Source: an uncultured archaeon
GTDB lineage: Archaea > Iainarchaeota > Iainarchaeia > Iainarchaeales > GCA-2688035
Assembly: GCA_964354805.1 (NCBI GenBank)
Contig: CAYHBD010000009.1
Span: forward strand, 116,770-180,769
DNA length: 64,000 nt
Direction of reading: 5' to 3'
The notes beneath the pieces are model-generated. The model was not told where the DNA came from and made no database searches. It was given only the letters and a program-made list of their open reading frames with translations. The position numbers and the translations under genes are program-made. How positions within the stretch are numbered: position 1 is the first letter of the stretch; every line of letters starts with the position of its first letter. This document shows positions 33,159-43,735 of this stretch, piece after piece.

Positions 33159-33470
33159 ATGGTACTGCAAACCCCCTCATTTTCTATTTCAGAAAAAGCA
33201 CCTGAGCCTACGGCAGAATCGCCCGAGAGAAAAAAAGGCAGCATTGAAATAATAAAAGAAACACTGCAAGAGCTCAAACAGCCAAGCGCCTGGCTGCGCT
33301 ACACAAAAGAAATCGCCGCAGGCGTGGCAGGCAAAGCTGTTGCGCAAGGAAAAAAAGGCAGCAAGGGAGAAAAAAAGCACTTCTGGCAACTGCTGCAAAA
33401 ACCCAGCTTCTGGATAACAATTGCGCTGCTGATTATTCTGGCAATAGTGCTTGCATGGATTTATTTATAA
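33159..33470 (+). CDS. Hypothetical protein with C-terminal TM helix
   Basis: 103-aa ORF ending FWITIALLIILAIVLAWIYL. Confidence 0.55.
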   Translation: MVLQTPSFSISEKAPEPTAESPERKKGSIEIIKETLQELKQPSAWLRYTKEIAAGVAGKAVAQGKKGSKGEKKHFWQLLQKPSFWITIALLIILAIVLAWIYL

Positions 33471-34251
33471 CCAGCCTGTCAATCCCCTTCAGCAGCAATT
33501 CTTTTTCCTTCGGCAATTTGTTGTTTTGGAAAAAAATCGCATTGCCGAACAAATAAAGCTGCGTTGGAAAGAAAGAATTGGTTAATTTGAACTGGTAAAG
33601 CCTGCACTCTTTATTGCAAGGGAAAACGCCGATTTTGCCGTGAAAAGAAATTTTATCACAGTTTGCAGCAAGACACAAACGAGTTGCTGAAACAAAGCAA
33701 AAAGGAAAGTAAAGGGAGCAGCGCAGCCTGCTCTTGCCCAAATTGGTGGCAATGCCCTGCGCCAAGTTATCCAACTCAACCCTGGCAACACCATTCTGCT
33801 GCAAAAACTTTTGGAAATGACTATTTGCAGCATGGCTCTGCATTAAGTGTGCGTAGAATTCCTTTGGAACTTTGGCTTTGAATGACGAAATCCTTGGGTC
33901 CCTGTACTGCCTGTTCAGCAGCCTGCCTGCAATCAGGGTTGCCTTGCTTTCTTTTGCAGCGTGCAGCAAGCCGTAATCGTTTACAACCAGCTCATCGCGC
34001 TCTGAAAGCATCTCTGCAAGAGGCAGAACAGAGCGCATTCCTGCATTTGTCAAAAAAGGCGTTACAAAAGAAAAACCGATTTCGTTCGCAGCACAAAAAT
34101 TTTTAACAAAAAGGAAATCCTTTTTGGTTGGCAACAATCGTTCACAAAATTCAGCGCCGAAATAAATTCTATTAAATGATTTATCCCACTGGCGCAATTG
34201 CACCTTATTTTCTACAAACAAAGCTTTCTCAATGCCCTTCATATTTTCCAC
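33433..34251 (-). CDS. U32-family-like protein (second component of a UbiU/UbiV-like pair)
   Basis: RIYFGAEFCERLLP, LVVNDYG, GRLL, RVELDN, RLC..C..C..C; overlaps the upstream U32 gene. Confidence 0.7.
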   Translation of the reverse strand: MENMKGIEKALFVENKVQLRQWDKSFNRIYFGAEFCERLLPTKKDFLFVKNFCAANEIGFSFVTPFLTNAGMRSVLPLAEMLSERDELVVNDYGLLHAAKESKATLIAGRLLNRQYRDPRISSFKAKVPKEFYAHLMQSHAANSHFQKFLQQNGVARVELDNLAQGIATNLGKSRLRCSLYFPFCFVSATRLCLAANCDKISFHGKIGVFPCNKECRLYQFKLTNSFFPTQLYLFGNAIFFQNNKLPKEKELLLKGIDRLVINKSMQALLPE

Positions 34252-35258
34252 TTCCCTGCGCTCGGGTAATAGCAGTTATTGCACTCGCAGGCCCTGTGAT
34301 ACAAATCAAAGTAAAGCCTGCCTGCCTCTTCCGCGAATTTTTTTGCAGGCAACTTTTTTGCATGCGAAGCGTTTTTTCGCAAGCCTTTTGTTAAAAGGCT
34401 TAAAGCAATCCCCTCTTTCACGGCAGCAATGTCCGCAATCTTTTTCTGCAGGCTGTTTGCCCTGCCTGCAATCTTCACTGAATCAACGCCGGCTTTGAGA
34501 AAAAAGGGCAAAGCGCACAAGCCGCAGTCATTATAGACAGTGTTGCACCAGACCTTTGCGTGCGCTGCAGCAATCTCCTTCTTGCAGGGAGCAGCGTTTC
34601 CCAGAACGCTTACAGAATAATTCATCCTGCACGCGAGAGGTTGCATTGGCAATTGCTGGCTTGGCTCAACAATGTGCTGGAAAGAGCACAAGCCGTCAAT
34701 GAAAGGGCAGATTGCATTCAAAACAAAGCACTCTGTTTCCAAGCCAAACCTTTTCGCCTGCCTTGAAAGCTGCACTGCTTCATTAACAGCCAAATGCCTT
34801 GGAAGAACAATTCGCTGAACGCCGAGCTGCTTGAAGAAATGCAGGGAATTGCTGTTGAAGCAGGGCTGCCCTGTGCTCAAAGAAATTTTTGCACCAGGAA
34901 ACTTTTCCCGAGCCAACTGAATTAGAACAGGGTCTGCAATTATCAGCCCAGCTGCTCCGGCAGCAAGAGCTTGCTTAACATAGCGCAAAACAATTGGCAT
35001 CTGTTCCTGGCTGTAAAAATGCGCGTTGAATGCAGCAAAAACTGGCACATTGCGCTTTTCAGCTGTTCTCACCGCGAGGCGCAATTCATTGAAAGAGGAA
35101 AGGTTCGCTGCCTTGTCATGCCTCAGGTTTATGCTCCCAACGAAAGTGAAGCGCTTTGCCCAATCAGGGGTCATAACGCCACAGTATAATTCGTTTGCCC
35201 CTGCTTCAATCAGGGGCAGCACTTCTGCACTGCTTGCAAAGGGAGAAAGTATTTGCAT
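34239..35258 (-). CDS. Peptidase U32 family (Fe-S hydroxylase-like) protein
   Basis: AGANELYCG, LIIADP, RIVLPRHL, CPFIDGLC, CGLC, SVKIAGR. Confidence 0.85.
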   Translation of the reverse strand: MQILSPFASSAEVLPLIEAGANELYCGVMTPDWAKRFTFVGSINLRHDKAANLSSFNELRLAVRTAEKRNVPVFAAFNAHFYSQEQMPIVLRYVKQALAAGAAGLIIADPVLIQLAREKFPGAKISLSTGQPCFNSNSLHFFKQLGVQRIVLPRHLAVNEAVQLSRQAKRFGLETECFVLNAICPFIDGLCSFQHIVEPSQQLPMQPLACRMNYSVSVLGNAAPCKKEIAAAHAKVWCNTVYNDCGLCALPFFLKAGVDSVKIAGRANSLQKKIADIAAVKEGIALSLLTKGLRKNASHAKKLPAKKFAEEAGRLYFDLYHRACECNNCYYPSAGKWKI

Positions 35259-35315
35259 AATACAAATTAATTGATAGAAATCACTTATAATCCTTTTTGG
35301 AAAAGAAATAATACT

Positions 35316-42243: not shown

Positions 42244-42252
42244 CAGCTCCGT

Positions 42253-42573
42253 TTACTTGCTTTGGGTCATAAGCGCTCTCTTAATCAGTTCATCCCTCAT
42301 GCGCCCTGTTTTTTTGCTTTCTGCAGCGTTCACGCTGTAATTTATCAGCTGGCTGTTGAACTGCCGCACAAGGGAACGCAAATCCTTTCCCTGCTTCGGC
42401 TGCAGGCTTACAACAACCTGGTCAATGCTGCCGTCAATAACAATGAATGCCTTGTCCAGCAGAATATAGGCTGCGCTGAAAATAACCGGCATTGGATAGA
42501 GCTTTGGATTCAGCGCAACGAGCGCAAAATTTTCCTTGCAGTGCAACTCAGCGTTGCCAAATTGCTCAGGCAT
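42253..42573 (-). CDS. hxsD: His-Xaa-Ser system protein HxsD
   Basis: LNPKLYP..FSAAYILLD..FNSQLINY..MRDELIKRAL; upstream of hxsB. Confidence 0.78.
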   Translation of the reverse strand: MPEQFGNAELHCKENFALVALNPKLYPMPVIFSAAYILLDKAFIVIDGSIDQVVVSLQPKQGKDLRSLVRQFNSQLINYSVNAAESKKTGRMRDELIKRALMTQSK

Positions 42574-42664
42574 CCCAACCGTAAAAAGTGGGTTGAAAGA
42601 ATATTTAAAGAAATCTAAGGGCTGGGAACTGCTTTGAAAAACTATTTAACAGAGTGCTGCGTTG

Positions 42665-43735
42665 CTAAAACGAAAGGAAACACACTGTCGCGCTTGGGCA
42701 AAGGAGCGAAAGCAGCACTCCAAAGAAAAGGATTGGCGCGAATGGGAGCGTTTCCTGCACAAGCAGGCTGTGGAATTTCACTTTCCCCTTTTTGTTTTTA
42801 TCCCGCAGCAGCCGAATGTCTTTCTCGCTTATTCCCTTCACCGAGATGTCAAACACATATTTTGTTTTAATGTCCTGCAGGACATTTACTAGGCAGGGGA
42901 AGAATAATTTCTTTTTCTCCAGGAAGCCGTTTTTTTCATACACTCCCTCAAGCAAAACCATGCCTGGCTGCAGTTCTGCAATTTCCCTTCTCTTTCCGAA
43001 AGAGAAGAAGCCAAGGTGCAGCACGAAGAAGCGCAGGAAAAGCATTATTATCAGTATCAGGAAAAAGGTTGAAAGGAAGCCTGGCAGAATGACAAGATTG
43101 AATTGCACTATGAGAAAAGCGATTGAAACAGCACCGCAGAAAAAAACAAGCTTTTTTGGAAAAACTGATTCGATTGCAGCAATAATGAAGAATAACAGCA
43201 AAACAATCAGGAAAAAATCAAGCGGAATCTGCAGAAAGGAAAAAAACAGGTTCAGCATCCAATAAAAAGCAAATAATATTATTGCAAGTGAAGCAACAGC
43301 TTTCGGCTGAAAACTTGCTTTCAGGGCAGCCAGCTTCTGCAGGCTGCTTGTTTTGAGCAAAGCGAAAAGGAACAAAACGAAGAATGCTGGAATGAACGCG
43401 TTAAGAATGATTGCAAAAGAGGGAAAGAAAACAAACTGGCTGTTGTAAAAGCCTGCAGGGAAAAGCAAAGCGAAAGCAAGGAAAAGCTTGCTGTCAGCAG
43501 CGCTCCACAGCCTTGCGAGGAAGAGCAGAAAGCCAAAGAGGAAAGCGAAAAAGCCGTTCAGCAGAAAAGCAGGCCAGTTGCCTGCAGCGAAGAGATTTAG
43601 GGCAAAAGCTGCTGCAATTGCCGGAAAAACAACCTTGTTGTGTATCTTCCCGCTGCGCAGGTCAGTGTAAGATGTAACAAAACCAAGGGCAAGGATAATA
43701 AAAATGTTTAATGCAGCAAGTTCTTGAAAAAACAT
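42665..43735 (-). CDS. A24 prepilin/preflagellin-type aspartic peptidase (extended multi-TM form)
   Basis: SYTDLRSGKIHN and WSAADSKL catalytic Asp motifs; C-terminal LPFAPILFFG. Confidence 0.82.
   Translation of the reverse strand: MFFQELAALNIFIILALGFVTSYTDLRSGKIHNKVVFPAIAAAFALNLFAAGNWPAFLLNGFFAFLFGFLLFLARLWSAADSKLFLAFALLFPAGFYNSQFVFFPSFAIILNAFIPAFFVLFLFALLKTSSLQKLAALKASFQPKAVASLAIILFAFYWMLNLFFSFLQIPLDFFLIVLLLFFIIAAIESVFPKKLVFFCGAVSIAFLIVQFNLVILPGFLSTFFLILIIMLFLRFFVLHLGFFSFGKRREIAELQPGMVLLEGVYEKNGFLEKKKLFFPCLVNVLQDIKTKYVFDISVKGISEKDIRLLRDKNKKGKVKFHSLLVQETLPFAPILFFGVLLSLLCPSATVCFLSF

Follow-up and report, generated by a model that had tools for sequence, protein, structure and literature searches.

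A probable archaeal HXS-type peptide maturation cassette in the Iainarchaeota combining a conserved five-gene core with a proposed tailoring module

The HxsD-HxsB-HxsC-HxsA proteins of Escherichia coli and Klebsiella form an anti-phage system that blocks the entry of phage DNA (Li et al., Nat Commun 2026, PMC13128918). HxsB, HxsC and HxsD are all needed for the maturation of HxsA, which involves a +8 Da change in an SHRSS motif as well as a non-canonical cleavage at the N terminus, and HxsC binds HxsD (PMC13128918). The protease and the chemistry involved are still unidentified, and 99.7% of the described HXS (His-Xaa-Ser) systems are encountered in Pseudomonadota (PMC13128918). In the present work, we describe an HXS-type gene cassette carried by a 64,000-nucleotide stretch of archaeal DNA, called hereafter the window (positions 116,770 to 180,769 of contig CAYHBD010000009.1, assembly GCA_964354805.1). 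Its host (genome G000) is an uncultured, small-genome member of the Iainarchaeota, which belong to the DPANN archaea. An earlier reading of the window from its sequence, referred to here as the original prediction, had proposed that positions 33433-43735 contain an expanded His-Xaa-Ser cluster.

There is solid support for identifying this locus as an HXS-type maturation cassette. In an NCBIfam scan, Hxs families were the top matches for HxsB, HxsD, an HxsD-like protein and the precursor peptide. We hold with moderate confidence that the cassette is an archaeal variant of HXS-type peptide maturation by radical S-adenosylmethionine (SAM) enzymes, in which a five-gene core is combined with a swappable tailoring module and whose likeliest role would be envelope defence. 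All ten open reading frames (ORFs) of the original prediction were confirmed, nine of them on the minus strand and the HemN-like gene alone on the plus strand. They are given below in the order of the cassette with their lengths in amino acids (aa); the last two genes overlap by 13 nucleotides (nt).

42665-43735, minus strand: A24 peptidase, 356 aa (PF01478 28.6 bits, PF06819 25.6 bits); core gene 1
42253-42573, minus strand: HxsD, 106 aa (TIGR03976 40.7 bits, cut-off 50); core gene 2
41995-42243, minus strand: HxsD-like protein, 82 aa (NF038315 47.9 bits, cut-off 41); core gene 3
40447-41892, minus strand: HxsB radical SAM/SPASM maturase, 481 aa (TIGR03978 331.8 bits, cut-off 370); core gene 4
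40174-40377, minus strand: HxsA3-like precursor peptide, 67 aa (NF038309 37.9 bits, cut-off 65)
39017-40096, minus strand: radical SAM/SPASM enzyme in place of HxsC, 359 aa (PF04055, PF13186); type I module
36638-38608, minus strand: NHL propeller protein, 656 aa (PF01436); type I module, dispensable
35271-36641, plus strand: HemN/HemW-like radical SAM enzyme, 456 aa (TIGR00539 207.2 bits, cut-off 205.4); type I module
34239-35258, minus strand: U32 protein, UbiU-like, 339 aa (PF01136 115.6 bits); type I module
33433-34251, minus strand: U32-like protein, UbiV-like, 272 aa (no family match); type I module

HxsB carries the CxxxCxxC motif and matches TIGR03978 over its full length (residues 12-474, E 6.5e-99); the HxsB proteins of relatives with the cassette types II and III described below exceed the cut-off of this model, with 379 and 431 bits. 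HxsD is syntenic at all related loci. The scan with Hxs models that the original prediction had proposed as a check gave a divided answer: the HxsD-like protein is the sole small Hxs protein above its curated cut-off, and the models for HxsB, HxsD and HxsA3 are top matches that score under theirs. The statement that the cluster contains no recognisable HxsC stands and extends to the 1.38-Mb, 88.5%-complete genome, in which the best TIGR03977 score is 36 bits for a cut-off of 267.9. The 359-aa radical SAM enzyme was considered as a diverged HxsC or HxsC4 and this assignment was rejected (TIGR03977, 17.8 bits). PADLOC 2023 holds no Hxs model, and the pVip matches obtained there reflect generic radical SAM similarity.

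With the bacterial systems, the cassette shares an HxsB-type radical SAM/SPASM maturase, HxsD, a precursor with an N-terminal export signal, a His/Ser region and an SHxS-type motif, an expected N-terminal processing and a patchy accessory distribution. It differs by the absence of HxsC from the genome, by the presence of a second, HxsD-like protein and by its gene order, which starts with A24, D, D-like, B and A and does not keep the bacterial D-B-C-A succession. It encodes in addition the A24 peptidase, an extra radical SAM/SPASM enzyme, the HemN-like radical SAM enzyme, the U32 pair and the NHL propeller protein. Whereas bacterial HxsA is composed of tandem His-Xaa-Ser repeats and a peptidoglycan-binding domain, the archaeal precursor of 67 aa contains about three His units and no such domain. 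The nearest named counterparts are NCBIfam variant families: the precursor leader matches both HxsA3 (NF038309) and HxsA4 (NF038313), the similarity to HxsA3 being limited to this leader, the 82-aa protein passes the cut-off of HxsD-like (NF038315), and enzymes resembling HxsC4 (NF038332) are carried by the type II and III relatives and not by the cluster of the window. No published description of these variant families (HxsA3, HxsA4, HxsC4 and HxsD-like) was found in the literature searched.

The distribution of the cassette was analyzed in 215 genomes of the phylum, several of which are metagenome-assembled genomes of 60-90% completeness, and in metagenome contigs; about 20 kb around 20 HxsB loci were fetched and the proteins of the window mapped onto them. 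HxsB homologues are present in 29 of the 215 genomes and fall into three architectures sharing the core of A24, HxsD, HxsD-like, HxsB and HxsA3-like precursor. Type I is that of the window. In type II (G062), the core is followed by a B12-radical SAM/HxsC4 fusion, an HxsC4-like enzyme, an HxsC-like enzyme (198.6 bits) and an Npun_F2552/HxsC4 fusion. Type III, found in another family, associates an HxsC-like enzyme (196.6 bits) and HxsC4-like enzymes with a 615-aa radical SAM/SPASM protein and HxS-repeat precursors. In the HxsB tree, the three types are separate and type I forms one clade (support 0.87). Since this clade does not follow taxonomy and includes a genome from another family (G151), it suggests movement or sorting of entire cassettes.

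The entire type I order, from a surface-protein gene through A24 to U32-like and on to a 187-aa gene and cdc6, is repeated on eight long contigs and the type I arrangement is also seen in metagenome contigs. The arrangement is not a product of chance, recurring as it does with the same genes in 14 other genomes and in metagenome contigs, and synteny among close kin would alone be weak evidence. Orthologues of the U32-like protein, of the HemN-like enzyme (at least 47% identity) and of the radical SAM/SPASM enzyme occupy an identical set of 15 of the 215 genomes, namely G000, 13 genomes of the same family and, outside it, G151. Five further family members yielded no match to the U32-like protein and, for the HemN-like enzyme, nothing beyond generic radical SAM similarity; four of them have no HxsB and the fifth, G062, has the type II system. 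Within one genus, the ten genes are present or absent as one block: G065 and G066 carry the cassette, and in G071 and G067 the 187-aa gene and cdc6 come immediately after the surface-protein gene. The cluster had therefore been correctly delimited in the original prediction. The slot between these two flanks is variable, being empty in G071 and G067, filled by type I in most relatives and by type II at the metagenome locus L172.

In G151, the left flank differs and the HemN-like gene has its place beyond the U32 pair, the set being kept after the rearrangement. In G074, the radical SAM/SPASM and HemN-like genes are found together on another contig (C188, locus L165) and the rest of the cassette is in place. 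At L165, the two relocated genes flank a gene for a 236-aa predicted membrane protein, beside a ribose-5-phosphate-isomerase-like gene; this contig is just 5.7 kb long and may be misassembled.

The A24 peptidase gene neighbours Hxs genes whatever the cluster type: it lies upstream of HxsD in types I and II and at some type III loci, and at the other type III loci it comes immediately downstream of HxsB. Both of its Pfam matches pass (PF01478, cut-off 26.5; PF06819, cut-off 23.4), and the two catalytic Asp are invariant in an alignment of 12 Hxs-linked and two canonical A24 sequences. The genome encodes three A24 peptidases. Two are canonical enzymes of the GGGD type (271 and 327 aa, contig C16) and the third, which is Hxs-linked, is the most divergent, with a second motif reading W-S/P-A/S-G/A-D instead of GGGD. 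This paralogue was detected in 27 of the 29 HxsB-positive genomes and in none of the HxsB-negative genomes at 73 bits or more, the latter giving three weak matches of 47-50 bits. A function as housekeeping prepilin peptidase was rejected, given the two canonical enzymes encoded elsewhere, which are the only ones kept by cassette-free sister genomes. There is good evidence that the A24 protein is a protease dedicated to the Hxs system, and it is predicted to be active. Like the archaeal A24 enzymes PibD, FlaK and EppA, it is a polytopic membrane protein with two catalytic Asp and the archaeal A24 C-terminal domain. It departs from them by the loss of the glycines in its second motif and by its presumed substrate site, EExG followed by x-I-S-K, which is not a classical class III signal. 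It is also about 85 residues longer than the 271-aa canonical copy of the same genome (the other copy having 327 aa).

The substrate would be the 67-aa precursor, whose C-terminal end is HQHSHLSHSNHSSY. It is laid out as a conserved leader, a signal-like hydrophobic stretch, a small-x-small site and a His/Ser core ending in SY. In an alignment of 15 precursors, the leader residues E19, G21, I23, K25 and G32 are invariant; the motif reads EExG, then x-I-S-K. The invariant Gly suits A24 cleavage and marks a candidate cut site. The stretch that comes after this motif is moderately hydrophobic, and a small-x-small site (ANA, VSA, AAA and similar) directly precedes the core in every precursor read to its end. 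Named relatives of the leader were found exclusively in Diapherotrites and Aenigmatarchaeota assemblies.

TLHxHxH[LM]S is common to the type I cores, whose ending is SH[GSAT]SY (NHSSY in the precursor of the window); type II cores finish in a glycine run, and type III precursors of about 110-130 aa contain long, true HxS repeats. The C-terminal end of the core thus tracks the type of tailoring module. The idea that a C-terminal Tyr is a hallmark of the U32-bearing type was weakened by some type III precursors that also end in Tyr in cassettes without U32. At another locus (L052, from position 3295 onward), a 487-aa protein consists of an Hxs leader and HxS repeats followed by S-C-H repeats in series and a long C-terminal domain, and represents a fused or extended form of the precursor.

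The tailoring module of type I contains a U32 protein and a shorter, probably U32-related protein. The longer one largely exceeds the PF01136 cut-off of 22.4 bits. Its best NCBIfam match is UbiU (82 bits, cut-off 440). The shorter, U32-like protein has no Pfam or NCBIfam match, a search of PDB sequences found nothing relevant, and the profile comparison with U32 was uninformative (probability 1.25%). A U32 gene precedes its gene at the majority of the other loci retrieved. Among 43 homologues, three cysteines are invariant (C36, C193 and C212) and a fourth, C216, is conserved to 90% or more. An AlphaFold2 model (predicted local distance difference test score of 90.3) resembles best the U32 protein Mk0906 (5D88; Z 13.9, root-mean-square deviation 3.8 Å, 197 residues aligned), other TIM barrels scoring somewhat lower (Z 11-12). 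U32 proteins have been linked to oxygen-independent, prephenate-dependent hydroxylation of aromatic rings (PMC10990095). Prephenate should be available in the host since its genome encodes chorismate synthase and chorismate mutase. The pair recalls the UbiU-UbiV heterodimer (PMC6747719, PMC10990095) in its adjacent long and short U32-type genes, its cysteines suited to a 4Fe-4S cluster and its prephenate supply. It differs by its scores far under the equivalog cut-offs (82 for 440 bits with UbiU, 17.3 for 275 bits with UbiV) and by its context, which is a peptide maturation cassette and not a quinone pathway.

We read this pair, from its sequence and contexts, as a portable module of predicted hydroxylase type that would have been recruited into the Hxs cassette. 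It is encountered in other surroundings as well. In Omnitrophota, Planctomycetes, Elusimicrobia and Deltaproteobacteria (L112, L116, L117, L122, L131 and others), it belongs to a conserved operon encoding a DegT aminotransferase, a flavin adenine dinucleotide (FAD) oxidoreductase, two PTO1314-like radical SAM/SPASM proteins, U32, U32-like and several B12-radical SAM proteins, which looks like an undescribed anaerobic pathway. The possibility that these bacterial clusters are hidden giant Hxs clusters was rejected, HxsB being absent from the five such genomes searched. In Bathyarchaeia and in Dehalococcoidales of the Dehalococcoidia (L094, L099, L115), the pair stands beside two or three GlcD-like FAD oxidases, accompanied at L094 and L099 by a GlpC/TfrB-like Fe-S protein and at L115 by an electron-transfer flavoprotein subunit. 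Two Undinarchaeota loci (L119, L134) group four long U32-type genes with a single short one, five in all, in about 8 kb.

The HemN-like enzyme possesses the CxxxCxxC motif and lacks the fourth HemN cysteine. Apart from HemW (TIGR00539), it matches HemN (TIGR00538, 192.6 bits, cut-off 324.95) and STM4012 (218.7 bits, cut-off 380) below threshold, and among solved structures it comes closest to HemN (1OLT) and to NocN, a class C methylase. It thus shares with the class C radical SAM methylases NosN and NocN, and with HemW, the HemN-family fold and a CxxxCxxC motif devoid of the fourth cysteine. The cassette offers no thiopeptide-type context, and the sequence fits a methylase or a HemW-type chaperone alike. 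As a conjecture, a one-carbon transfer by this enzyme would fit the carbon gain observed in the bacterial +8 Da change. The NHL protein finds its best named NCBIfam match in a ScyF-like family (145.8 bits). Its translation begins with a hydrophobic anchor, followed by a Cys-rich module and then the propeller; because a membrane anchor and this module precede the propeller, the protein should face outward.

Building upon the observed gene content, homologies and co-inheritance, we infer the chemical steps, the cleavage sites and the role as follows. The HxsB and HxsD proteins would bind the conserved leader in the cytoplasm and modify the His/Ser core. In the type I lineage, the usual HxsC-type enzymes are replaced by the radical SAM/SPASM enzyme, the HemN-like enzyme, the U32 pair and the NHL protein, and the enzymes of the module would introduce further changes near the conserved SHxSY end. 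Among them, the HemN-family protein may be a class-C-type one-carbon transferase and the U32 pair may form an oxygen-independent, prephenate-dependent hydroxylase. The peptide would then insert into the membrane through its signal-like hydrophobic stretch, where the dedicated A24 protease would cleave at the invariant EExG site and signal peptidase may also cut at the small-x-small site. The modified His-rich tail would finally reach the cell exterior and may be handled there by the NHL protein. That the enzymes of the cassette act on the peptide had been put forward in the original prediction, and we likewise infer it.

An exported or surface-displayed modified His/Ser peptide is the best reading of the product. 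This retains one part of the original prediction, which expected a probably uncharacterised metal-binding or surface peptide; the class is in fact not wholly unknown, given the anti-phage work on HXS (PMC13128918). As this experimental characterisation concerns phage defence, we prefer defence to metal binding as a first guess. By analogy, the likeliest role of the cassette appears to be a defence acting at the envelope against viruses or other invaders, because the only relative that has been tested is anti-phage, because the cassette is accessory and all-or-none within a genus, and because alternative types swap at one slot.

Several points weigh against the interpretation of the ten genes as one HXS-type defence cassette. 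Three core proteins, HxsB, HxsD and the precursor, score under the curated cut-offs. An archaeal cell envelope, very short repeats and the lack of a peptidoglycan-binding domain depart from the bacterial model, and the bacterial mechanism is not simply transferable since the precursor has about three period-3 His units only and no such domain. The EExG site has no basic residue at -2, as would be usual, and is followed by charged residues, unlike in classical prepilins; the conserved small-x-small site fits the ordinary signal peptidase I. The original prediction regarded the U32, HemN-like, NHL and A24 genes as companions of hxsB. The refutation proposed there, a lack of co-occurrence in other genomes, was not borne out: the association is verified for A24 and, within the 15 type I genomes of two families, for the U32-like and HemN-like genes; the extra enzymes accompany one of the three archaeal Hxs types only, and NHL is dispensable, its gene being lost in G061. 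The carriers are close kin, so that the co-occurrence rests on few independent events. The U32/U32-like pair is not specific to Hxs either, being found at 80 loci across many bacterial and archaeal phyla, and no HxsB was detected in five bacterial genomes searched that contain U32-pair clusters. The HemN-like enzyme passes the HemW cut-off by 2 bits. The pair or this enzyme could act in a different process and simply be inherited along with the cassette.

This last possibility can be developed into a different explanation, which we judge unlikely: the locus would consist of two neighbours, an Hxs core (perhaps with the radical SAM/SPASM enzyme) and a separate U32/U32-like/HemN-HemW-like unit, lost and gained together by large insertions or deletions. 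The separate unit could, for example, perform oxygen-independent hydroxylation of RNA or of a small molecule and provide a heme or Fe-S chaperone. The wide occurrence of the pair in bacteria and other archaea, in clusters without HxsB, would then be expected, as would the HemW match (207.2 for 205.4 bits) and the RNA bases and quinone rings that are the known U32 substrates; the HemN-like gene moreover lies on the opposite strand, and a gap of 408 nt is found ahead of NHL. A housekeeping role is nevertheless unlikely because the orthologues are confined to the 15 type I genomes and occur neither in sister genomes nor in the type II genome. These genes also remain with the Hxs core after the rearrangement in G151, the HemN-like gene of G074 was relocated with the radical SAM/SPASM gene and not with the U32 pair, and an HxsC-type module substitutes for them in the same slot.

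Two other explanations concern the peptide itself. It could be a secreted or surface-exposed His-rich chelator for the uptake or buffering of nickel, zinc or copper instead of a defence effector, an option to which we give still less credit. A core dominated by His at period 2-3 and ending in Tyr lends itself to this function, hydroxylation or cross-linking could tune metal affinity, and DPANN cells depend on scavenging. However, no metal transporter or receptor gene accompanies the cassette, its dispensability and patchiness within a genus fit accessory defence better than nutrition, and the anti-phage activity of the only tested relative (PMC13128918) points the same way. A role of the precursor as minimal type IV pilin-like subunit, processed by A24 and assembled into a surface fibre decorated by the radical SAM enzymes, is very improbable. 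The dedicated A24 protease, the invariant Gly ahead of a hydrophobic helix and the adjacent giant surface-protein gene would agree with such a fibre, but genes for a pilus assembly ATPase or platform are not found with the cassette, the Gly is followed by five polar or charged residues and the helix by a conserved site of the signal-peptidase type, and the giant gene stays where the cassette is absent.

In the archaeal cassettes, sets of tailoring enzymes are swapped as modules behind a single conserved core, and such cassettes would represent a rare DPANN case of a system for envelope-level defence or for a surface peptide. The cluster-encoded A24 protease provides a concrete candidate for the processing step of Hxs effectors, and the finding of a U32 pair of predicted hydroxylase type, together with a HemN-like enzyme, in a cassette for a peptide leads to testable mass-shift predictions. 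Going further, A24 might be the leader protease of Hxs-type effectors at large and the U32 pair might hydroxylate a His or the C-terminal Tyr of the peptide without oxygen, a combined proposal that we consider doubtful. Were it correct, A24 would point to the protease that carries out the non-canonical cleavage at the N terminus of bacterial HxsA, the peptide would be the first peptide substrate of prephenate-dependent U32 hydroxylases, and the A24, U32 and HemN-like steps would lead to a surface-displayed peptide guarding a DPANN archaeon against viruses.

On one side, the cassette is flanked by the gene of the 2221-aa surface protein (43751-50416) and, on the other, by the 187-aa gene (32562-33125), orc1/cdc6 and PolD. 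The giant surface protein was considered as a member of the cassette and rejected, its gene being retained where the cassette is missing. An 80-aa ORF (38733-38975) was treated as spurious, with no family match and no counterpart at any related locus. Some repeats were also observed. A 56-nt unit present in 2.1 copies (75% matches) at 41852-41968 covers the intergenic stretch between HxsD-like and HxsB and the first annotated HxsB codons; homologues align from about residue 5-12, and the true HxsB start may be located further inside the frame. The cdc6 gene contains a 42-nt repeat (32281-32363). In their translations, the radical SAM/SPASM enzyme and HxsB each display a diverged in-frame tandem duplication of 14 residues, of which the radical SAM/SPASM orthologue of G074 has one copy only.

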